NCBI GenBank assembly: GCA_020429915.1
Contig: JAGQKV010000026.1
Span: forward strand, 2,217-66,216
DNA length: 64,000 nt
Source of the DNA: Candidatus Omnitrophota bacterium
GTDB lineage: Bacteria > Omnitrophota > Gorgyraeia > Zapsychrales > Zapsychraceae
Direction of reading: 5' to 3'
The position numbers were made by a program, and so were the translations under genes. Every line of letters begins with the position of its first letter. The first letter of the stretch is position 1. Under the pieces are notes generated by a model that was not told the DNA's origin, searched no databases, and worked only from the letters and a program-made list of their open reading frames with translations. Shown here piece by piece: positions 43,176 to 62,811 of the stretch.

Positions 43176-43575
43176 GTGTCTGTGGTGGGCCGCCGGCAGC
43201 GGCATCTTCGGGGTGATCGCGGGATTTCTGGGCGCGCGGTGGTGGCGGCAGCGGGCGTTGAGGCGCCGGCGCCGCGCCCGCAAGTTGATCCGGGGGCTGG
43301 ACCATCCCGCAGCGGCTTCCCGTGACCGGACGCCGTCGCCGGTTTCGCGGCCGGCCGTCACGGACACAGAACCCGCGTACGAATATCTGCTCGACATTAT
43401 GCTGGGCGGCGGGCTCAACCTTTTGCGGGAGGCCATGACGTCGCTGATCAATCGCTATGCCGCCGAGGGCTGGAGCTTCTATACGATCAGCAGTGATTTT
43501 AAGGGAGCGGGCGGCTGCTGGATCGTCTTCCGGCGCCGGCGGGAGTCCGGCAAGCGGGGGGAAGATGGTGAATAA
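43162..43575 (+). CDS. Hypothetical membrane-anchored protein (137 aa)
   Basis: N-terminal TM helix LWWAAGSGIFGVIAGFLGA followed by an Arg-rich stretch. Overlapping start and stop suggest translational coupling. Confidence 0.35.
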   Translation: MTMGECLWWAAGSGIFGVIAGFLGARWWRQRALRRRRRARKLIRGLDHPAAASRDRTPSPVSRPAVTDTEPAYEYLLDIMLGGGLNLLREAMTSLINRYAAEGWSFYTISSDFKGAGGCWIVFRRRRESGKRGEDGE

Positions 43576-43999
43576 AGGTTCGGCCATATCAAAGATGGAG
43601 CTCGCCGTCATGGTATTGGCGGCCGCGGGTCTCCTGGGCGCATCGGCGTATTTCCTGTTTCCCGACTCTATGCCGTCCGGCGGTACGGTCGATGCGAAGA
43701 TGAAGGCCGGGCAGCGCCGCACCGTCCCCGCCCTCTTGCGGGATGCCTACCGGGACTACAACCAGACCGTTAACAGCAACCGGGACACTTACGGTGTGTT
43801 GTACTATCCCTGTCCCGCCGGGTACGACTGCCGCGGTTTGATCCCGCCGGAATTATTGTTGCCCGCCGACGAGGTTGTCTTCGACTATTGCGGCGGAGAC
43901 CGCGAAGAATGCCTTATCCTCGCCATCGATATGCTGATCCGGTCGGGGATTGAGGATGTTGAGGCGTACCTCGCGGACCGGGGCGCGGCCGAAGGCTAG
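43565..43999 (+). CDS. Hypothetical membrane-anchored Cys-containing extracytoplasmic protein (144 aa)
   Basis: Internal start MVNKGS with RBS GGGGGAAG. TM helix LAVMVLAAAGLLGASAYFLF, then YYPCPAGYDCRGL...DYCGGDREECL. Confidence 0.4.
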   Translation: MVNKGSAISKMELAVMVLAAAGLLGASAYFLFPDSMPSGGTVDAKMKAGQRRTVPALLRDAYRDYNQTVNSNRDTYGVLYYPCPAGYDCRGLIPPELLLPADEVVFDYCGGDREECLILAIDMLIRSGIEDVEAYLADRGAAEG

Positions 44000-44126
44000 T
44001 CGGGGGAAGGGCAGCGACTAGCGGAAAGCGGCCAGGGAAGAGAAAGGGATCAGTGGATAGGAGATAGTGGGATTAGTGAACAGGAGGGGGTTAGTAAAAA
44101 GATTCATGAAAGAACTAACCGCTAAC

Positions 44127-45109
44127 TGTGTTATTCCAGGACATCGGTAACAGATTTAAAATAGTTGATTCTGCGCTGAACCGGTGTCAGGCCCTTTAGA
44201 CTTAAGTGAGGGCGATTAAAATTATAGTGTTGAACGAAGGCATCAAGAACCTGTGAGCGATGAAGACTATTGCGCAAGCGGATACGATTATAGCACTCAT
44301 CATCAATGGTTCTAAAAAAGCGCTCAACTTTGCCATTTGTTTCAGGATGATACGGTCGCAAAAGGTAATGCCGAATGCCTAAATCCCGGCACGTTTGGGC
44401 GAATAAAGTTAAACGACTGGCATGAGCGGCATAGCGCATCGAAAAACAAAAAGCATTATCGGTTAACACGGCCTTAACAGGATAATTGTAGTATTCTAAG
44501 GCCAAATATAAAAAATCTGTGGCCGCACGAGTAGTTGCGGCCGGATAAATGCGACAGAAAGCTTCTCTGGAGTAATCATCCAGAATAGCAAACTGATGCT
44601 CTTTGGGATGTCCTCGACGTAGCGGAACAAGCGTTTTAGTATCCAGATGTAAGAGTTCACCGGGATAAGTTTTTTCATATCGCTGGGGCTTCTTCCTCGG
44701 TTTTTTCGGCTGCAGGTACTGGAGGCCTTGCCGGCAAAGCGTACGATAAACGCTGCTGTGGCTTAAACCCAAACGTAATGCAATGCGAGCTGGGCCGATC
44801 TTCTCCTTTACTCGCAGGGATATGATCTGTTGTATGACATGATCCGATAATGCGCCAGGCGAATTCTGGGGCCGGGTAGAATGATCCTCAAGTCCCTCGA
44901 TGCCCAGTTTCTGATACCGATTTAACCATTTATAGATGGTCTTTCGGCTTAAATCAAAGAGCTTAGCGATATCGGTGACAGAATTACCGTTATTAATTAA
45001 TTCGATGCACCGTAACTTGACTTTACGTGATATTCGGGAATTCATCGGACACCCTCCTTTGGTGCAATTCTACCAAAGAAATGTGTTACCGATGTCCTGA
45101 AACATCACA
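44127..45109. mobile_element. Intact IS481-family insertion sequence (about 983 bp) with about 31-bp imperfect terminal inverted repeats (TGTG...CACA) and a 6-bp target site duplication GCTAAC
   Basis: Left end TGTGTTATTCCAGGACATCGGTAACAGATTT versus the reverse complement of the right end TGTGATGTTTCAGGACATCGGTAACACATTT. GCTAAC lies at 44121-44126 and 45110-45115. Confidence 0.8.
44131..45045 (-). CDS. IS481-family DDE transposase (HTH + rve integrase core)
   Basis: N-terminal HTH (VTDIAKLFDLSRKTIYKWLNRY) and an rve core with the DDE context LHLDTK...LTDNAFCF...HPETNGKVERF. Confidence 0.9.
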   Translation of the reverse strand: MNSRISRKVKLRCIELINNGNSVTDIAKLFDLSRKTIYKWLNRYQKLGIEGLEDHSTRPQNSPGALSDHVIQQIISLRVKEKIGPARIALRLGLSHSSVYRTLCRQGLQYLQPKKPRKKPQRYEKTYPGELLHLDTKTLVPLRRGHPKEHQFAILDDYSREAFCRIYPAATTRAATDFLYLALEYYNYPVKAVLTDNAFCFSMRYAAHASRLTLFAQTCRDLGIRHYLLRPYHPETNGKVERFFRTIDDECYNRIRLRNSLHRSQVLDAFVQHYNFNRPHLSLKGLTPVQRRINYFKSVTDVLE

Positions 45110-45233
45110 GCTAACCCCTAGTCCCGGGAGGGCGCTCCCTAAACACTCGCCGCTCATCGCTAACCGCTAGTATACAGTGTATCGGCGCCCATGGAGCTCT
45201 AACCATGCAGATTATCCATAATCTGGTACAATA

Positions 45234-46238
45234 ATGATCATGCCTAAAAGCCCATCCGAGACACGCGGCTATCCGGCACTGCTAAGAACATTGCGCGCCG
45301 AGGTCGCGTCGGCCAAAAGCGATATTGCGCGGCGCACCGTCGTGCTCTATTGGACGGTGGGCCGGCACATCAATCAGTTTCTTTCCTCGCAACCCGCGGA
45401 CGGTTCCTACCGGCGCGGGTTTTTTCATGGGTTGAGCGAGGACTTGGGCATCGATACCCGGACTTTATACCACGCGTCTTTGTTTGAACGGACATACCCC
45501 AAGCTCGACGCCAAGCTTGATTTGAGCTGGTCGCATTACCGCTATCTCTGCCAGCTGCCCACCGCTGCCGAGCGCCGCCGCTGGGAACGGCGCATTATTA
45601 AAGAGAAGATCAGTTCCCGCGACCTGTTGGCCTTGATGCATGAGGGCGAAACAGACATGCCCGGCGGAACGCTGGCAGAACCGGTGCGCGGACAGCTGTA
45701 CCATTACCGCCTGATCAAGAGCAGCAAGCTGGTGACCGGGCCTGATGTGATGCTGGTCGATTGCGGCTTCGAGAATTGCGTGGACGTCCCGCAGGCATCC
45801 GTCCGGCTGAACAACACGCACGTGTACCGGTCGGACAAACAGGACGGCGTCTACACGTTAAAGGCATCGAAGGTGACGCGCGACCGGCTGTACACGTACA
45901 AAGCCTATGTCGAGCGCGTGATCGACGCCGACACGCTGAAGGTGATCGTCGACTGCGGCTTCGGCATCCGCCACCGCCAGACCGTCCGGCTGAAAGGCAT
46001 CGACGCCCCCGAGCTCAAGACCATCCCAGGCACCCGCGCCGCCGCCTGGGTCAAAAACCAACTCAAAGAATGCCCCTTCATCATCCTGCGCACCCACAAG
46101 ACGGATAAGTATGCGCGGTATTTGGGGGATGTGTTTTATTTGGCGCATGAGCAAGACGCGGATGTGGTGGTGGCTCAGGGAGATTATCTGAATGGGGGGA
46201 TGGTGGAGATTGGTCATGCGCAGATATGGGAAAAGTAA
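45234..46238 (+). CDS. Fusion protein: DUF1016 (YhcG N-terminal-like) domain plus staphylococcal-nuclease-like (SNase/thermonuclease) domain
   Basis: N-terminal half RRTVVLYWTVGRHINQFL...FFHGLSEDLGIDTRTLYHASLFERTYP resembles YhcG_N. C-terminal half VIDADTLKVIV...VRLKGIDAPE...DKYARYLGDVF resembles the SNase fold. Confidence 0.7.
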   Translation: MIMPKSPSETRGYPALLRTLRAEVASAKSDIARRTVVLYWTVGRHINQFLSSQPADGSYRRGFFHGLSEDLGIDTRTLYHASLFERTYPKLDAKLDLSWSHYRYLCQLPTAAERRRWERRIIKEKISSRDLLALMHEGETDMPGGTLAEPVRGQLYHYRLIKSSKLVTGPDVMLVDCGFENCVDVPQASVRLNNTHVYRSDKQDGVYTLKASKVTRDRLYTYKAYVERVIDADTLKVIVDCGFGIRHRQTVRLKGIDAPELKTIPGTRAAAWVKNQLKECPFIILRTHKTDKYARYLGDVFYLAHEQDADVVVAQGDYLNGGMVEIGHAQIWEK

Positions 46239-46287
46239 CAAATAAATCGTATTGAAACAATAAAAGGAAATCAGAAAGGTTCAACGC

Positions 46288-47094
46288 ATGGTACGTATTC
46301 CCAAGAAAGTATCTGAACGGTTAAAGAAGGAAATGAGCAGATTTCAAAAGATTCTCAAGAAGGCCAAGGATCGGGATGTTAATGAGTCTGATACGGTGAC
46401 GATCATCACGGATATGTTGGCTGAAGTCTTTGGGTATGACAAATACTCCGAAATTACAAGCGAACAGGCTATAAGAGGGACTTATTGTGACTTGGCTATA
46501 AAGTTAGACGGAAAAATGAAGTTCTTGATTGAGGTTAAGGCCATCGGTCTCAATCTAAAGGATAATCATCTCCGGCAAGTTATCGGCTACGGGGCCACGA
46601 ACGGCATCCCGTGGGTTGTCCTGACAAATGGTATAGAGTGGCAGATATATCGCATCAAGTTTGAGAAACCGGTAAACTACGAATTGGTGTTTACACTTAA
46701 TTTTGCCGAAATAAGCACGCGTAAGCAGGAAGACCAGGACAAGGCATTTTTGCTATGTAAAGAAGGCCTTGAAAAGGCCGCCATTGAGGAATTTCATGAT
46801 CATGTGCAGAGTGTGAACAGATTTATGATCGGGGCAATTTTGCAGTCGGATACAGTGATATCCGTCATTAGACGAGAGTTGCGCAAGATGACCGATGGTG
46901 TGCGAGTCAAGGATGACGAAATTAGACGGATTTTGATTGAGGAGGTGCTTAAACGGGATACGGTGCAGGGTGAAATGGTAAAAGACGCGATGTCCAAGAT
47001 AAAGAAGGCTCATAAAAAGAAAGTTAAGAAAGCATCGAGGCGTAAGAAAATTGTGGCATCGGAGGAGCCTCAGCCTGATATTGAGCAAGGTTAA
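46288..47094 (+). CDS. HsdR_N-like / Mrr-like PD-(D/E)xK restriction-endonuclease-fold protein with a Lys-rich C-terminal tail
   Basis: YCDLAIKLDGKMKFLIEVKAIG...QVIGYGATNGIPWVVLTNGIEWQIY matches the D...(E/I)xK...Q..Y...TNG pattern of the type I R-subunit N-terminal nuclease domain. Confidence 0.6.
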   Translation: MVRIPKKVSERLKKEMSRFQKILKKAKDRDVNESDTVTIITDMLAEVFGYDKYSEITSEQAIRGTYCDLAIKLDGKMKFLIEVKAIGLNLKDNHLRQVIGYGATNGIPWVVLTNGIEWQIYRIKFEKPVNYELVFTLNFAEISTRKQEDQDKAFLLCKEGLEKAAIEEFHDHVQSVNRFMIGAILQSDTVISVIRRELRKMTDGVRVKDDEIRRILIEEVLKRDTVQGEMVKDAMSKIKKAHKKKVKKASRRKKIVASEEPQPDIEQG

Positions 47095-47124
47095 GATTGT
47101 TTCCGGAAGGTCTGTTTACGTATT

Positions 47125-47844
47125 ATGGCAATATCAAATAGTCTCACATGGATTAAGAATGTTGTCGAATGCACGGACACACCTGCGGGTCGACGTTTTG
47201 ACCTGTTCATTCAGTTCTTAATAATTTTGTCGATTGTGACATTTTCAATCGAAACCTTGCCGAATCTTGGTCAGCCAGTCAAGGCTGTCCTGCGCTACAT
47301 TGAAGTCGCCGTAGTGCTTGTATTTACTATGGAATATGCTCTGCGCATTTTAGTGTCTGGCCACAAGATAAGATTTATCTTCAGCTTTTTCGGATTGGTG
47401 GATTTTCTGGCGATTTTGCCATTCTATTTAGCCTTGGGGATAGATTTGAGGGCCATCCGGGCGCTGCGATTGTTTAGGCTTGTTTGGTTGATGAAGTTGG
47501 CACGATATGGCCGGGCAATAGAGCGTTTTCGGAAGGCCTTTGAGATTGCCAAGGAAGAAGTTGCCCTATATTTGATGTTCACTTTGATCCTGTTGTTCCT
47601 ATCTAGTGTCGGTATTTATTATTTTGAACACGATGCTCAACCGGATGAATTTCAGTCCGTGTTCCATGCAATGTGGTGGGCCGTTGCTACGCTTTCTACG
47701 GTGGGATATGGGGATATTTATCCGGTGACAGCCGGAGGGAAGGTGTTTACGTTTTTTGTCCTAATTTTGGGATTGGGGATTGTCTCGGTGCCATCGGGGT
47801 TGATTGCATCAGCGTTGATGCGAGTAAAGTCGGAAGAGTTGTAG
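47125..47844 (+). CDS. Minimal 6-TM voltage-gated potassium channel (Ion_trans; S4 voltage sensor plus GYGD selectivity filter)
   Basis: S4 RAIRALRLFRLVWLMKLARY with Arg at every third position. Pore TLSTVGYGDIYP. 239 aa, ending right after S6. Confidence 0.85.
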   Translation: MAISNSLTWIKNVVECTDTPAGRRFDLFIQFLIILSIVTFSIETLPNLGQPVKAVLRYIEVAVVLVFTMEYALRILVSGHKIRFIFSFFGLVDFLAILPFYLALGIDLRAIRALRLFRLVWLMKLARYGRAIERFRKAFEIAKEEVALYLMFTLILLFLSSVGIYYFEHDAQPDEFQSVFHAMWWAVATLSTVGYGDIYPVTAGGKVFTFFVLILGLGIVSVPSGLIASALMRVKSEEL

Positions 47845-47947
47845 GCGGTTGCAAAATGAAGCCGCTTTAAAGAAAAGCGTTCTTTTTCAGCTTGGATGGT
47901 TATTGCAACTATTATCGACTAGAACAGTAACAGTCTAAAGCATACAT

Positions 47948-48631
47948 TTGGAGGTGCAAATGGGACCAAACAGGATTATGGTATTTTATGATGGTGGATT
48001 CTTTAGGCATGGTCAAATTTACTTTAATTATAATGAGGGTCGTGGGTGGTTCAGTTTGCCACAACTACACATAACATTAGAAAAGTACGTGGCCAGTAAG
48101 ATCAAAACGCCTGTTGAAATTACTAAAGTCGTTGGGGCACACTATTATGATGGTAGACCTTCTACAAATGTGGCAGACTCGGATAGTTTAGAGAAAGATC
48201 GTAAATTTGAAATGAGCCTTATATCTGCGGGTGTGGTGCCACATTATTTAGCCCTTAGTGAGAAATTAAAAGGCTCGCCACCAGAAGAGTCATATTATTT
48301 GATGCAAAAGGGTGTGGATGTAAAGCTTGCATTGGATGCATTAGATTTTGCTCATGACAATAGATTTGACGTAGCGGTATTAATTGCAGGAGATGGCGAT
48401 TTTGTACCACTTGTTCGGAAGGTTACCTCCTTGGGTAAGCAGGTTCTGGTGGCCTATTTCGAATTCGATTCATGGAAGGACAACATAGGAAAGAATCATA
48501 AACCATGCTATGTATCACGAGAACTGATTGATGCTGCCACAGCATCACTAAACTTTAATCAATTAGTTAAGGATCGAGATTGGAAGAGTGAGATACGATC
48601 ATTGTTCTTTAAACCAAAAACTTCTGAGTGA
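47948..48631 (+). CDS. NYN-domain (LabA/YacP-like) putative ribonuclease
   Basis: IMVFYDGGFF...GVDVKLALDALDFAHDNRFDVAVLIAGDGDFVPLVRKVTSLGKQV matches the NYN signature. Confidence 0.75.
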   Translation: MEVQMGPNRIMVFYDGGFFRHGQIYFNYNEGRGWFSLPQLHITLEKYVASKIKTPVEITKVVGAHYYDGRPSTNVADSDSLEKDRKFEMSLISAGVVPHYLALSEKLKGSPPEESYYLMQKGVDVKLALDALDFAHDNRFDVAVLIAGDGDFVPLVRKVTSLGKQVLVAYFEFDSWKDNIGKNHKPCYVSRELIDAATASLNFNQLVKDRDWKSEIRSLFFKPKTSE

Positions 48632-48850
48632 CGACTTTGAACAGAACTCGAAGAATGTAGATATAAATTGTGCCAATAATAATAGGGGCCCTAATAAAAT
48701 CCGGGCACCGAAAAAAATAGATACCAAATATTACAGGGCAATCTGGAATCTTTGTTTACGGGTCCATTGACATTTTCTCATTAGAATTGGCTCCTTTCCT
48801 TGGAGCTCAATTCTACACAATTTACTCACTTGCACTCAAGAATATTTGAA

Positions 48851-49008
48851 AATCAGGGGACACAATACCTATATCCGTCAGTGCCGGGATGATTGTGTCA
48901 GAGGGTTACCAATAACAATCTGCAATCTATAATTAAAGTACTCCAAAATCCAAAATCGGGGGACACAATACCTATTTCGCGCGAGTTAAGTATTGTGTCC
49001 CCTGATTT
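48851..49008. repeat. Three copies of the element AATC(A/G)GGGGACACAATAC(C/T)T: two direct copies 100 bp apart, plus an inverted copy forming a 13-bp perfect hairpin with copy 2
   Basis: Copies at 48851-48870, 48953-48973 and, inverted, 48990-49008. Hairpin GGGGACACAATAC ... GTATTGTGTCCCC. Confidence 0.5.
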
Positions 49009-49052
49009 CCTGATTTTAGGAGTTGTGGAGTAAACAGTGAGAGGGTGAATTT

Positions 49053-49589
49053 ATGGATAAGAAAATCTTGATAGAAAAGTATTTTCAGATAGTCGTAGAT
49101 AAATTCTCTCAGTATATGGAGAGTAACGATTTTCTGTTAGAAACAAGGGAAATACAAAACAACTCGGCGCAAGTAGTTTTTCGCAGCGGAAGCCGTTATG
49201 TGAAACTGCTTATGAACCTCGACGAGAGAGATGGGCCGAACTACTTCAATATAGTCCTGGGTGAGGGCTTATCAACATATCCTGAAGCAGATTGGAACTC
49301 CATAGCATTATGGAAACTTATGGAGTCTCATAGCCATGATAATGTCGGCGAATATGCTATAAGATTGACGGATGTGAAGGATGTTGAAAAAGTTATTGAT
49401 TTGGGATTGCAGGATTTAGAGGGTTACGGAAACGAATTTATGTGCGGAAAGATATCAACATTTCGGAAAGTGCGAGGAAAATTAAACAGGGATAGGGAGC
49501 CATATATTATTCATAAGTTTGATAAAGATAAAGGCCGAGTTTCGGTTGTTGATCCCGAGTCCGAGAGGTTGCGAAAGAAGTTTAGTTGA
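49053..49589 (+). CDS. Hypothetical protein (178 aa), low GC, unknown function
   Basis: AT-rich ORF on the same strand as the upstream nuclease/channel genes. No recognisable motif. Confidence 0.5.
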   Translation: MDKKILIEKYFQIVVDKFSQYMESNDFLLETREIQNNSAQVVFRSGSRYVKLLMNLDERDGPNYFNIVLGEGLSTYPEADWNSIALWKLMESHSHDNVGEYAIRLTDVKDVEKVIDLGLQDLEGYGNEFMCGKISTFRKVRGKLNRDREPYIIHKFDKDKGRVSVVDPESERLRKKFS

Positions 49590-49730
49590 AGAAAAAATAG
49601 TGCCGTTTTCATAAGGCCCCCAAGAGCAATTCTTTATAGTATAAATCAATCGTAGTAAATGAATTAATTCATAAACCTAAGCCGTTCTCTTTCTCGTCTC
49701 TATCCGCTAAACGCTATCCGCTGAATTCGA

Positions 49731-50240
49731 TTAGAACAATGTCCCCACGGTCTTCATCGGCAGAAAAAGGCGTAAGGGTTGATCGGGGAAGGGGATGAAG
49801 CCGAATTTCAGGTAGAATCCGGCGGCCTTCTCATGGAGGGCATCGACGACCACGGCCATCGATCCGATTTGCTCTGACTGGTAGTAACTTCGCCTTAAGG
49901 CATCAATCAAAAGGCGTGGTCCTAATCCCCGCCCCGCGCAGCGTTGATCCACGGCCAACCGGCCCAGCAGGGTTGCCGGTTTGAGCTTATACGGCGACAG
50001 TTTCAGTTTCTTCAAGACCTCCGCAGAAAAATCCTCTCTGGGGACATGGAGCGCCGACAGGGTATAGTATCCCCGGACGCGACCGTCCTCATCACAATGG
50101 ACGAACACGGCTGTTTCTTTGCGTTCCATATCCAGGCGGGCGTATTTGTGCAGATAATCATTCAGGACCGGTTCAATGCAGGAAAAGGATTTTCTGTCAT
50201 GCCGTTTGTGCAGCGGCTCGGTGAGAAACTCCCCCGGCAT
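49731..50240 (-). CDS. GNAT-family acetyltransferase toxin (TacT/KacT/AtaT-like) of a type II TA system
   Basis: GNAT core LGRLAVDQRCAGRGLGPRLLIDAL. The gene sits immediately downstream of and abutting a DUF1778 gene. Confidence 0.8.
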   Translation of the reverse strand: MPGEFLTEPLHKRHDRKSFSCIEPVLNDYLHKYARLDMERKETAVFVHCDEDGRVRGYYTLSALHVPREDFSAEVLKKLKLSPYKLKPATLLGRLAVDQRCAGRGLGPRLLIDALRRSYYQSEQIGSMAVVVDALHEKAAGFYLKFGFIPFPDQPLRLFLPMKTVGTLF

Positions 50241-50507
50241 TCAGGAAACGACTTTCCGGTAATCTTGGGCGGCCTTTTTCAGGGCCTTGTTCGGCGCAGG
50301 CGGGTTGAGGAGGGCTTCAATAAAAACCTTTTGATCATTTTCACTCATGGCGAGCTCTTGGTGGCGCTGAATAATGTGGGCCGCTTCTTTGTCGGCGGCC
50401 GATGTGACGAACTCCGTTACTGAGGCAAAATTCCCCAGCGCGGCGGCCCGTGCGTAGAGCTTCTTTTTTTCTTCCGTGATCCTCGTATCCAGGCGGGCTT
50501 TTTTCAT
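50241..50507 (-). CDS. DUF1778 (RHH) antitoxin, TacA/KacA-like
   Basis: 88 aa, MKKARLDTRITEEKKKLYARAAALGNFASVTEFV, typical of the DUF1778 family. It lies upstream of the GNAT toxin. Confidence 0.8.
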   Translation of the reverse strand: MKKARLDTRITEEKKKLYARAAALGNFASVTEFVTSAADKEAAHIIQRHQELAMSENDQKVFIEALLNPPAPNKALKKAAQDYRKVVS

Positions 50508-50550: not shown

Positions 50551-50562
50551 GGCAGCGGTTAG

Positions 50563-50710
50563 CGTATAGCGGCTAGCGGTTAGTCTCAGGCAGCGTCATT
50601 TGCGTTTAGGGCTAAGCGGTTAGTTTTCCCGGTTTGGTTCTTCACTGAATCCTCTATCCACTATTTTCTATGCACTCTCTATTCGCTAGCCGCTATACGC
50701 TAATCGCTGG
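50563..50710. repeat. Long imperfect inverted repeat built from TAGCGGT-type heptamers (AGCGGTT AGCGTAT AGCGGCT AGCGGTT ... CGCTAGC CGCTATA CGCTAAT CGCT)
   Basis: The left arm at 50563-50634 and the right arm at 50684-50710 are reverse complements over about 27 nt. Confidence 0.6.
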
Positions 50711-50878: not shown

Positions 50879-51229
50879 ATGGAATGGAAAGGGATGTCGG
50901 ATGAGGCAATTCTGGAGGAGATCGGGGGGCGGATCGCCCGCTACCGGTTGAACCGGAATATGACGCAGGCGGCCTTGGCGACCGAGGCGGGGGTGTCGGT
51001 GCCGACCGTCCAGCGCGCCGAGGCGGGGCGCTCGATTCAGGGGATGAAACTCGTGCGGATCCTGCGCGTTTTGGGCCTGCTCGAAAACCTGGAGGCGCTC
51101 ATCCCCGAACCGGCCGCCAGCCCGCTGCAGCAATGGCAACAGGACGGCCGTGTGCGTCAACGGGCCTCCGGTTCCGGCCAGCCATCCGCGGATGCCGATG
51201 AGGAATGGACCTGGGGAGACGACCAGTGA
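50879..51229 (+). CDS. XRE-family HTH protein (HipB-like antitoxin)
   Basis: HTH LNRNMTQAALATEAGVSVPTVQRAE. It lies immediately upstream of and overlaps the HipA-like gene. Confidence 0.7.
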   Translation: MEWKGMSDEAILEEIGGRIARYRLNRNMTQAALATEAGVSVPTVQRAEAGRSIQGMKLVRILRVLGLLENLEALIPEPAASPLQQWQQDGRVRQRASGSGQPSADADEEWTWGDDQ

Positions 51230-52527
51230 GTGTCGCCGAGGTGCGGCTGTGGGGCCGGGCGATCGGCGCCGTGGCCTGGGATGAGGCGCGGGGGACCGCG
51301 CACTTTGAATACACCCCGGCCTTCGCGCGCAGTGCCATCGAGGTTGCGCCGTTGATGATGCCGCTTAAAGAGGGGATCTATTCGTTTCCGTCGCTGGCCC
51401 GCGAATCCTTTCACGGCCTGCCGGGACTGCTCGCCGATTCCCTGCCCGATAAATTCGGCAACGCGTTGATCGATGCCTGGCTGGCCGCACAGGGCCGTAC
51501 GCCCGCGGGATTCAATCCGGTGGAACGCCTGTGCTATATCGGGACCCGCGGCATGGGGGCGCTGGAGTTTCAGCCGGCGCGGGCGCCGTTTCGCGCGAGC
51601 GGCGAACCGCTGGACATCGCCGCGCTGGTGGAGCTGGCCTCGGCGATCCTCACCCAACGCGATTCCTTCCACGGATCGTTCGCGTCAGATGAAAAGGGAC
51701 AGGCCCTGCGCGACATCCTGCGGGTCGGGACATCCGCCGGCGGGGCGCGGGCCAAGGCGGTCATCGCCTGGAATCCGGACACCAACCAGGTCCGCTCCGG
51801 ACAGGCCGCCTCCCGGGACGGATTTCAGCATTGGATCCTCAAGTTCGACGGGGTCACCGGCAACCGCGACAAGGAGCTCGACGATCCGGCGGGCTACGGA
51901 CTGATCGAATACGCGTACGCGCTGATGGCCGCCGCGGCCGGGATCCATATGAGCGAATGCCGCTTGCTGAAAGAAGGCGGGCGCAGCCACTTCATGACGC
52001 GCCGCTTCGACCGTACCGCAGACGGGCACAAGGTCCACATGCAGTCGCTGGGCGCGCTGGCGCATTTTGATTTCAACCGGGCCGGCGCCTATTCGTATGA
52101 ACAGGCCGTGCAGGTGATCCGGCGGCTGGGCCTGCCGATGAGCGCGGTGGAAGAGCAGCTACGCCGCGCGGCCTTTAACATCGTGGCCCGCAATCAGGAC
52201 GACCACGTCAAGAACATCGCCTTTCTGATGAACAAGGCCGGACAGTGGCGGCTGTCGCCGGCCTTCGATGTGATCTACAGCTACAACCCCGACGGGGACT
52301 GGACCGCGCGGCATCAGATGTCGTTTAACGGCAAACGCGACGGCTTCACCGCCGCGGACTTCACCGCCTTCGGACGGACGGCGTCGATGAAAAAGGGACG
52401 GGCCGAAGAGATCCTCGCCGAGGTCTCCGCCGCGGTCAAACGCTGGCCCGAATTCGCCGCCGCGGCCGGGGTGGATGAGCGCACGGCGGGGAGGATCGGG
52501 AAGGCGCACCGGAAAATCAGCGGTTAG
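51205..52527 (+). CDS. HipA-family serine/threonine kinase toxin
   Basis: HipA C-terminal motif DDHVKNIAFLMNKAGQWRLSPAFDVIYS plus a HipA N-terminal-like region. A GTG start at 51226 overlapping the hipB stop is an equally likely start. Confidence 0.85.
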   Translation: MDLGRRPVSVAEVRLWGRAIGAVAWDEARGTAHFEYTPAFARSAIEVAPLMMPLKEGIYSFPSLARESFHGLPGLLADSLPDKFGNALIDAWLAAQGRTPAGFNPVERLCYIGTRGMGALEFQPARAPFRASGEPLDIAALVELASAILTQRDSFHGSFASDEKGQALRDILRVGTSAGGARAKAVIAWNPDTNQVRSGQAASRDGFQHWILKFDGVTGNRDKELDDPAGYGLIEYAYALMAAAAGIHMSECRLLKEGGRSHFMTRRFDRTADGHKVHMQSLGALAHFDFNRAGAYSYEQAVQVIRRLGLPMSAVEEQLRRAAFNIVARNQDDHVKNIAFLMNKAGQWRLSPAFDVIYSYNPDGDWTARHQMSFNGKRDGFTAADFTAFGRTASMKKGRAEEILAEVSAAVKRWPEFAAAAGVDERTAGRIGKAHRKISG

Positions 52528-62635: not shown

Positions 62636-62797
62636 GCGGATAGCGTCTAGCGGTTGGGGTTGAGTAAGGGGGCAGCAATTAGGAAACAGTGAAATTGGGG
62701 AATAAACATTCCAGCCTCGTCAGTACTAACCACTCATCCCTAACCCCGAAATGGTGCCTCCTGAAACTAACCGCTAGCCGCTAAACGCTAACCGCTA
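62636..62797. repeat. Inverted pair of TAGCGGT-type heptamer repeats (GCGGATAGCGTCTAGCGGTTGGGGTT ... AACCGCTAGCCGCTAAACGCTAACCGCTAG)
   Basis: The arms flank about 100 nt. Related short copies occur at 45145-45170, 49699-49723 and 52518-52543. Confidence 0.6.
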
Positions 62798-62811
62798 GAA
62801 ATAAGTGCATC

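Follow-up and report, generated by a model that had tools for sequence, protein, structure and literature searches.

Recurrent pairing of an HsdR_N-type nuclease gene with a voltage-gated K+ channel gene, as found in an island of an Omnitrophota genome

Phage lambda carries, beside the repressor gene of its prophage, the two-gene RexAB module, in which a cytoplasmic sensor of nucleic acids is combined with a membrane ion channel that collapses the membrane potential. The lysogeny module is the classical prophage site of genes for exclusion and defense, rexAB next to cI being an example. The current report deals with a gene pair to which RexAB is the nearest known system in logic and genomic niche, consisting of a restriction-type nuclease gene (g2) and a gene for a voltage-gated K+ (Kv) channel (g3), and with the island that contains it in a 64,000-nucleotide stretch of the genome of a Candidatus Omnitrophota bacterium (assembly GCA_020429915.1, contig JAGQKV010000026.1, positions 2,217 to 66,216 of the forward strand). 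We refer to this entire 64-kb stretch as "the window" and to its genes of interest, in their order, as g1 (a DUF1016_N plus SNase fusion), g2 (the HsdR_N nuclease), g3 (the Kv channel), g4 (an NYN protein) and g5 (a hypothetical protein). Coordinates given without a locus number are positions in the window, and numbers of the form L107 designate the loci with which it was compared.

Homologs of g2 are found in the same lysogeny-region niche as RexAB, and g3 encodes an ion channel, but no homology to RexAB was detected. RexB is a protein of four transmembrane (TM) segments, whereas g3 specifies a predicted 6TM, voltage-gated and K+-selective channel, and g2 specifies a PD-(D/E)xK nuclease whose active-site residues are all in place; moreover, g2 occurs without a channel in most genomes, and the PADLOC scan returned no Rex match. 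The literature on Hailong (Tan et al. 2025; PMC13434031, PMC13586616) describes a two-gene anti-phage operon that depolarizes the membrane, in which the tetrameric, K-channel-like HalA is partnered with the nucleotidyltransferase HalB; according to the same sources, the oligo-dA made by HalB keeps the channel closed, and HalA is marked by IRK/pentapeptide features and by a crown in the cytoplasm that binds DNA. The likeness to g2-g3 lies in the combination of an ion-conducting membrane protein with a nucleic-acid enzyme in two genes, but the partner of the channel in g2-g3 is a nuclease, and g3 has a canonical voltage sensor and no cytoplasmic domain. Membership in Hailong was considered and rejected on the latter count and because none of g1 to g5 encodes a nucleotidyltransferase domain. 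In Zorya, as described in one of these sources, a review (PMC13434031), a membrane complex that conducts ions is linked, where the phage enters, to effectors that degrade DNA. Hailong and Zorya are the closest described precedents for a nucleic-acid enzyme that acts together with an ion-conducting membrane protein. Zorya differs from g2-g3 in that ZorAB are MotAB-like proton stators rather than Kv channels and in that it comprises four genes, including those for the ZorC/D nuclease-helicase effectors. No sequence relationship to RexAB or Zorya was detected, and the locus contains no MotAB-like stator, so that membership in these systems was likewise rejected. Our searches of the literature on nuclease/K-channel defense, Hailong, COG2810, prophage exclusion and PDC-S02/DUF1016 disclosed no description of an HsdR_N plus Kv pair.

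A sequence-only reading of the window had proposed that g1 to g4 are a four-gene defense operon. We conclude with considerable confidence that no conserved system is made up of these four genes, and we favor, by a modest measure, the interpretation that the locus is a mosaic islet built up by accretion, in which g1 and g4 are independent genes and g2 and g3 form a genuine nuclease-Kv module.

The nuclease-channel pair and its recurrence

The two genes of the pair are located in the window as follows.

46288..47094, plus strand: g2, a stand-alone HsdR_N-type PD-(D/E)xK nuclease, 268 amino acids (Pfam)
47125..47844, plus strand: g3, a minimal KvAP-like voltage-gated K+ channel, 239 amino acids (Pfam, PDB matches)

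The g2 protein matches the Pfam families HSDR_N_2 (E 1.4e-6), HSDR_N and MmeI_N, and belongs to a family of more than 7500 matches, 50-75% identical across phyla, whose members are named "HsdR N-terminal domain-containing protein" or "predicted type IV restriction endonuclease" (COG2810) in the sources. Its PD-(D/E)xK signature consists of D68, E82 and K84, which are invariant in the alignment, and helices make up its C-terminal half, which closes with a Lys-rich tail. Nothing significant was found when the g2 profile was compared with PDB sequences (best E 0.36); in a fold search, g2 proved to have its fold and catalytic motif in common with the nuclease domain of Type I HsdR and with those of BpuSI and DrdV, which are Type IIG/IIL enzymes. 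By these predictions g2 is a restriction-type nuclease fold with intact active-site residues. Assignment to Type I HsdR was rejected, since g2 consists of the nuclease domain and helical tail only and the island contains no superfamily 2 (SF2) motor, HsdM or HsdS. The likeness is to the solitary Type IV or HsdR_N nucleases of COG2810, whose fold and catalytic motif (D...ExK, intact) it has, and like which it is a solitary gene without an adjacent cognate methyltransferase; the recurrent channel partner, however, is not part of any described restriction type.

Homologs of g2 are located in the lysogeny modules of prophages, and genes of this type would belong to the accessory gene stock of prophages and other mobile genetic elements (MGEs). 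The g2 protein has a full-length match to phrog_17239 (a family of unknown function), and of 75 g2-anchored viral contigs, 21 have a tyrosine integrase gene no farther than 3 kb away, 15 a CI/S24-type repressor gene and ~12 a serine recombinase gene. The temperate Thermus phage Riverbug (L260, PQ109080.1, 31115-31909) presents a LexA-like regulator, a g2 homolog annotated as "restriction endonuclease", a periplasmic-domain protein and an integrase in this order, and in Leptospira weilii plasmids (L261 being pDO6) the g2 homolog is situated between a PIN-type toxin-antitoxin (TA) pair and copies of IS5. Cultured carriers of g2 homologs thus exist and could be used experimentally.

The g3 protein matches Pfam Ion_trans (E 3e-35) and Ion_trans_2 and, in phmmer searches of the PDB, is matched over residues 25-233 by KvAP (1orq, 2a0l), Kv1-4 and Shaker. 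It is built of segments S1-S6, with LRAIRALRLFRL as S4, in which Arg occurs at every third position, and with a TVGYGD filter that is invariant in the family alignment. All of the sequence hallmarks by which a Kv/KvAP-type channel is predicted are therefore present, and g3 is such a channel by these marks. Its family is very large and conserved and consists of stand-alone channels of ~235 amino acids; g3 also matches phrog_7872.

The recurrence of the pair was examined in 80 g2-anchored loci from GTDB species representatives of many phyla, whose neighboring genes were searched by tblastn and iterated hidden Markov models (HMMs), in the 75 viral contigs mentioned above and in 80 channel-anchored metagenome loci, the last with an HsdR_N-domain HMM. 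An Ion_trans channel is encoded within 3 kb of g2 in 11 of the 80 genome loci and no more than 80 bp from it in seven (L009, L011, L016, L037, L041, L050 and L065), which represent at least 6 phyla. Unbiased clustering of all open reading frames (ORFs) within 3 kb showed the channel to be the sole recurrent neighbor family of g2 besides generic ABC ATPases, and in a Pfam census of 145 immediate neighbors of g2 the Ion_trans family ranked first (6), followed by HTH_3 (4) and Peptidase_S24 (3), with singletons, including housekeeping genes, as the remainder. The density of channel ORFs amounts to 14.7 per 100 kb at 0-0.3 kb from g2 versus 0.3 at 3-6 kb, a ~50-fold difference (binomial p=3.4e-6), and the Poisson probability of 7 or more such neighbors out of 145 is <3e-9 against a background of 1-5 Ion_trans genes per genome of 3500 genes, which is our own assumption.

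The same association is encountered from the side of the channel, where 5 of the 80 channel-anchored loci (L107, L108, L143, L131 and L152) contain an HsdR_N-like gene. At L107 an HsdR_N-like gene for 346 amino acids ends 4 nt ahead of a channel gene whose product is 53% identical to g3, and at L108 the order is reversed, the channel gene ending 29 nt ahead of the nuclease gene. Two of the 75 viral contigs, from phage or prophage, have g2 and a channel gene adjacent to each other; in L230 the pair lies beside a tape-measure gene, and in L246 the genes of an HTH-HSDR_N_2-Ion_trans series overlap. In L011, L037, L041, L065, L107 and L246 the stop codon of one gene overlaps or abuts the start codon of the other. 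Both gene orders as well as a convergent arrangement occur, and the partner nucleases, at 28-63% identity, extend from close relatives of g2 to proteins at 28-32% that have different C-terminal regions. A 488-amino-acid ORF with a hydrophobic-looking N-terminus (L152:2414-3880, minus strand) is situated between the g2-family gene and a channel gene 2.4 kb away from it.

At least 3 channel subtypes occur beside g2 in the seven adjacent genome loci.

L037:387-1139, L041:5235-5999 and L065:1769-2548: channel of ~250 amino acids with a coiled coil at its C-terminus and a TGEYGD filter instead of TVGYGD, encoded directly upstream of g2
L011:5181-6032 and L016 (upstream of g2), L009:6764-7642 (downstream): TVGYGD channel of ~285 amino acids that ends in a CPHCG zinc ribbon
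L050: short channel type, convergent

The window, L107 and L108 use a further type, the minimal channel of ~235 amino acids. A search for the GEYGD subtype, which covered viral contigs only, yielded matches of 24-31% identity, none with an HsdR_N neighbor. Such diversity of channels and nucleases speaks for repeated recruitment, and for this reason we take the link between g2 and the channel to reflect function rather than an inherited accident or a bias in insertion sites; that the linkage of g2 and g3 is functional and not fortuitous seems to us reasonably probable. We infer that g2 and g3 are co-transcribed, on the grounds of the 30-nt gap between them, a terminator-like site downstream and the translationally coupled arrangements found elsewhere.

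The neighbors of the pair and the layout of the island

The remaining features of the island and its flanks are listed below in the order of their coordinates.

44114..45122, minus strand: insertion sequence (IS) of the IS481 family, with a transposase ORF at 44131-45045 (Pfam rve, rve_3, LZ_Tnp_IS481)
45234..46238, plus strand: g1, a DUF1016_N plus SNase fusion, 334 amino acids (Pfam)
47863..47889, plus strand: terminator-like hairpin CGCTTT-AAAGA-AAAGCG, then TTCTTTTT (consensus scan and direct sequence reading)
47960..48631, plus strand: g4, an NYN/LabA-like single-domain protein, 223 amino acids (Pfam NYN)
48851..49010, plus strand: structured repeat element in the g4-g5 spacer (motif count, fold score)
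49053..49589, plus strand: g5, a hypothetical protein, 178 amino acids, at the end of the low-GC block (ORF)
49731..50507, minus strand: GNAT toxin and TacA-type ribbon-helix-helix (RHH) antitoxin pair (Pfam Acetyltransf_1/7/10; TacA1 E 2.5e-23)
50879..52527, plus strand: TA module of a HipB-like helix-turn-helix protein and a HipA kinase (precomputed Pfam HTH_31/HTH_3 and Couple_hipA/HipA_C, from the identical contig)

The g1 gene is an independent single-gene family with a guanine-plus-cytosine (GC) content like that of the host, and is a relative of PDC-S02, the DUF1016/YhcG single-gene defense candidate, with an SNase domain in place of the usual PD-(D/E)xK nuclease. Pfam detects DUF1016_N at residues 25-134 (E 1.7e-9) and SNase at residues 250-331 (E 3.9e-6), and the catalytic set of the SNase domain (VDxDT, R252, DAPE260 and R295) is invariant in the family. 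This full-length architecture is represented by 340 clusters at 50% identity (E<1e-30), nearly all of 330-350 amino acids. The likeness to PDC-S02 lies in the matches of the DUF1016_N domain of g1 to many PDC-S02 models, and the difference in the replacement of the YhcG-type C-terminal PD-(D/E)xK nuclease by SNase. We did not assign g1 to PDC-S02, since the matches are to its N-terminal domain only (residues ~3-136, best E 3e-12) and the full-length DUF1016/YhcG architecture has no match beyond the N-terminal ~135 residues. Relatives of g1 were found in none of the 80 g2-anchored genome loci, 75 viral loci and 80 channel-anchored loci, and a g1-anchored survey brought up three distinct contexts, none with g2, g3 or g4. 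In viral contig L178 a g2 homolog is directly preceded by an SNase-like ORF (L178:4549-4824), whose identity to the g1 C-terminal domain is 27%; no other adjacency of SNase and g2 besides that of g1 and g2 was seen, and this one may be coincidental.

The g4 gene is also independent and has its own Shine-Dalgarno site. It is listed among the ORFs as 47948-48631, but its likeliest start is the ATG at 47960, behind the GGAGG at 47950-54; public gene calls assign it 223 or 217 amino acids. Its product matches Pfam NYN (E 6e-16) and belongs to a family of 273 matches, and its PADLOC matches, to HEC-09 (E 3e-8) and to an NYN model (9e-6), are partial and confined to residues 118-169. The five g4-anchored loci represent three distinct contexts, in which genes of transposase, integrase and HNH type are among the neighbors; these neighbors are mutually unrelated and include no conserved partner, channel gene, HsdR_N gene or g5. 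Near relatives of g2 and g3, NYN genes were found at 1 of the 80 genome loci (L023, 1.7 kb off and on the opposite strand), at none of the 75 viral loci and at none of the 80 channel-anchored loci.

The layout of the locus bears out the description given by the sequence-only reading in most respects. Pfam confirms the three nuclease folds (SNase, PD-(D/E)xK and NYN), with invariant catalytic residues in the first two, and the Ion_trans match, TVGYGD filter and Arg-repeat S4 agree with the identification of the fourth gene as a voltage-gated K+ channel. The flanks are also as had been described, with the IS481 element on one side and g5, the GNAT/TacA RHH pair and HipBA on the other. All four genes are indeed on the plus strand, and the gaps of 49 nt (g1-g2) and 30 nt (g2-g3) stand as in the ORF listing, but the g3-g4 gap is about 115 nt rather than 103 because the start of g4 moves to ATG 47960. 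The placement of all four genes in a low-GC island was correct for g2 to g4 and not for g1: the GC content of g1 (0.58-0.61) is like that of the flanking genome, and a fall to 0.39-0.46 starts exactly at the g1/g2 junction and extends over g2-g5 (about 46250-49700).

Further information on the history of the island comes from a sister species (L167), which has the same flanks at 72-76% nucleotide identity and g1, g2 and g3 in the same order, with amino acid identities of 79% for g1, 90% for g2 and 71% for the start of g3; the GC step between g1 and g2 is present there as well. It is the only other genome in which g1, g2 and g3 occur together, and because the flanks are the same we attribute their occurrence there to vertical inheritance and do not count it as independent evidence. 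Exact-sequence look-ups of g2 and g3 led to the same organism and context only and are thus uninformative on co-occurrence. The IS481 element, which is flanked by 44-nt inverted repeats (44114-44157 and 45079-45122), and the region of the adjacent ORF 43457-43999 are absent at the orthologous site of the sister species (L167:2318-2570). The IS481 thus arrived recently, is not part of the module and did not bound the island in its original state.

Other features of the island were noted in passing. The g5 protein has no Pfam, NCBIfam, PADLOC or PHROG match and no family assignment, and relatives of it were found neither in the 80 g2-anchored genome loci nor in the g4-anchored contexts. The g4-g5 spacer contains, at 48851-49010, three copies of the motif GGGGACACAATAC, of which two are direct and one is inverted, with 0.05 occurrences expected; the rest of the window has none. 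The repeat includes a perfect 13-bp hairpin in a structure of great stability (-64.7 kcal/mol, z -4.9) that has no Rfam match, and it may represent a regulatory RNA, an operator or a remnant resembling a miniature inverted-repeat transposable element (MITE). An Rfam scan of the island gave no match, and a promoter scan gave a number of sites not above that in shuffled sequence. A dispersed repeat of ~70-85 nt, rich in CTAACCGCT units, occupies several intergenic sites (62721-62808 and, in reverse, 50553-50625), with remnants around 45100-45175 and 44017-44030. The sister species has a copy upstream of g1 (L167:2430-2518), and the IS481 of the window is situated within or next to that copy.

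Explanations of the locus and its possible function

In the view that we prefer, three independently mobile units, namely g1, the g2-g3 pair and g4, gathered beside the TA modules and were later struck by IS481. In the mechanism that seems likeliest to us, g2 would be an MGE-borne solitary nuclease that attacks or senses incoming foreign DNA, and nucleases of its type would, in a minority of lineages, repeatedly have taken on a channel of the Kv type for action at the membrane. This channel could be the effector, whose opening would cause K+ efflux and depolarization and would thereby exclude the phage or abort the infection in the manner of RexAB of lambda or of Hailong, or it could be a sensor of the depolarization that accompanies the entry of phage DNA. 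An earlier suggestion that a nuclease and a depolarizing channel act together thus survives in reduced form: the g2-g3 pair is recurrent and enriched across phyla and in phages, g1 and g4 are not included in it, and defense is its putative function. We regard anti-MGE defense or exclusion as a plausible though tentative function of g2-g3, one which falls short of even chances in our estimation; the pair would probably be an exclusion or abortive-infection device of the RexAB or Hailong kind. The most specific version of this idea, in which an HsdR_N nuclease and a Kv channel make up an unrecognized, scattered, prophage-borne anti-MGE system whose channel either senses the depolarization caused by injection and licenses the nuclease or opens downstream of the nuclease or of DNA sensing to abort infection, appears to us rather unlikely as it stands.

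A number of observations weigh against a functional nuclease-channel module set among independent genes. Pairing is patchy and the minority state, at about 5-10% of either family; it was seen in some 9-14% of the g2 loci and some 6% of those of the channel, and the closest non-orthologous relatives of the g2 (P0008, 73%) and g3 (P0122, 66%) of the window are unpaired. The paired g2 proteins are not a clade, none of the 8 having a paired nearest neighbor, and no sequence features distinguish paired from unpaired homologs, many of which are situated among housekeeping genes. A single weak PD-(D/E)xK match is all that PADLOC gives for g2 and g3. The adjacency of g1, g2 and g3 has been kept in one sister species, so that there may be a lineage-specific functional link to g1, and the hairpin at 47863-47889, which is suggestive of the 3' end of a g2-g3 transcript that would set g4 apart, is a weak consensus match in a region whose site counts are not above shuffled expectation.

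Some of these observations bear on the nature of the partnership. Obligate co-inheritance of the pair in dedicated clades was rejected on account of the nearest-neighbor result and of channel remnants that suggest loss: a 66-amino-acid pore fragment next to g2 (L016:5722-5922), a 149-amino-acid voltage-sensor fragment 1.2 kb from g2 (L043:4753-5202 and L044:2981-3430) and a 76-amino-acid fragment 5.2 kb from g2 (L050:11929-12159). The remnants suggest that the channel partner decays repeatedly while the nuclease is retained. We also considered whether the unpaired g2 genes have hidden divergent channels or other membrane partners, and rejected this possibility because 12 other multi-TM neighbors are unrelated transporters, enzymes and GYF-domain proteins that occur at about the background frequency. 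Since g2 is usually solitary and the paired and unpaired sequences are alike, the channel is likelier to be an optional add-on than an obligate subunit.

Pure accretion, in which the four genes are independent, g3 is a housekeeping channel and the adjacencies result from hitch-hiking or from an insertion-site preference of a mobile nuclease, would account for the ~90% of g2 homologs and ~94% of channel homologs that are unpaired, for the polyphyly of the paired members and for the derivation of the channel of the window from a very large family of stand-alone channels; g2, residing on prophages and plasmids, lands in many contexts. What we find difficult to reconcile with it is the local enrichment of ~50-fold (p=3e-6 against an internal control) of a channel that is the sole recurrent neighbor, together with the overlapping or abutting stop and start codons in six loci, the variety of channel and nuclease subtypes and the presence of the pair inside phage genomes, a pattern that an insertion-site bias would not yield. 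We consider this explanation doubtful, yet it deserves more weight than the two that follow. That all of g1 to g4 might be one four-component defense system, with three nucleases and a depolarizing channel, is suggested by their common strand and short gaps, by the joint presence of g1, g2 and g3 in the sister species, by the weak matches of the N-terminal domain of g1 and of g4 to PADLOC candidate families, and by the TA- and IS-rich neighborhood. By the refutation that the sequence-only reading had set for itself, a lack of co-occurrence of the genes in other places, the four-gene defense operon nevertheless did not survive the comparison with other genomes, where no g1 and 1 NYN gene (that of L023) were found in 235 g2/g3-anchored loci and the g1- and g4-anchored contexts are unrelated to one another; the GC discontinuity between g1 and g2 and the terminator-like hairpin and separate Shine-Dalgarno site before g4 also speak against it, and we think it very unlikely. 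The accompanying statement that the combination is not a named system is upheld, as none was recognized in the PADLOC scan of the region.

The g2-g3 pair might instead serve a phage or other MGE as an offensive or maintenance module, for instance as a nuclease directed against the DNA of the host or of competitors and a depolarizing channel that times lysis or aids DNA entry, or as an addiction pair of the toxin-antitoxin kind. The pair is indeed found in bona fide phage contigs, at L230 beside a tape-measure gene, g2 and g3 match phrog_17239 and phrog_7872, respectively, genes of the g2 type reside in lysogeny modules near integrase and repressor genes, and the locus in the window is surrounded by TA modules. 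However, most copies of g2 are chromosomal and solitary, and we see no sign that either gene neutralizes the other. Genes that are co-oriented with the repressor in a lysogeny module are typically lysogen-expressed genes of exclusion or defense, such as rexAB and sieB of lambda, and not lytic genes. We therefore judge an offensive or maintenance role to be improbable and return to the mosaic islet with its nuclease-Kv module as the interpretation that we prefer.

Implications for prokaryotic Kv channels

The case of g1 to g4 serves as a caution that a tight, same-strand cluster of defense-like domains in an island is not equivalent to an operon-level system. A smaller lead takes the place of the four-gene system, namely a recurrent module of a restriction-type nuclease and a Kv channel, which is described in none of the libraries and papers that we consulted. 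If the module acts as proposed, a first function would be provided for the large, unannotated family of phage and bacterial proteins represented by phrog_17239 and PF13588-only proteins, and a voltage-gated member would be added to the depolarizing immune effectors, which include RexB, HalA and the membrane effectors of CBASS (cyclic-oligonucleotide-based antiphage signaling systems) and CRISPR. Ever since KvAP, it has been asked what physiological role voltage-gated K+ channels play in bacteria and archaea. The recurrent, prophage-linked pairing of a nuclease with a minimal Kv channel offers a testable idea in this respect, that Kv channels act in conflicts with mobile DNA; if that is true, the prokaryotic Kv channels would gain a concrete physiological role as a component of immunity.

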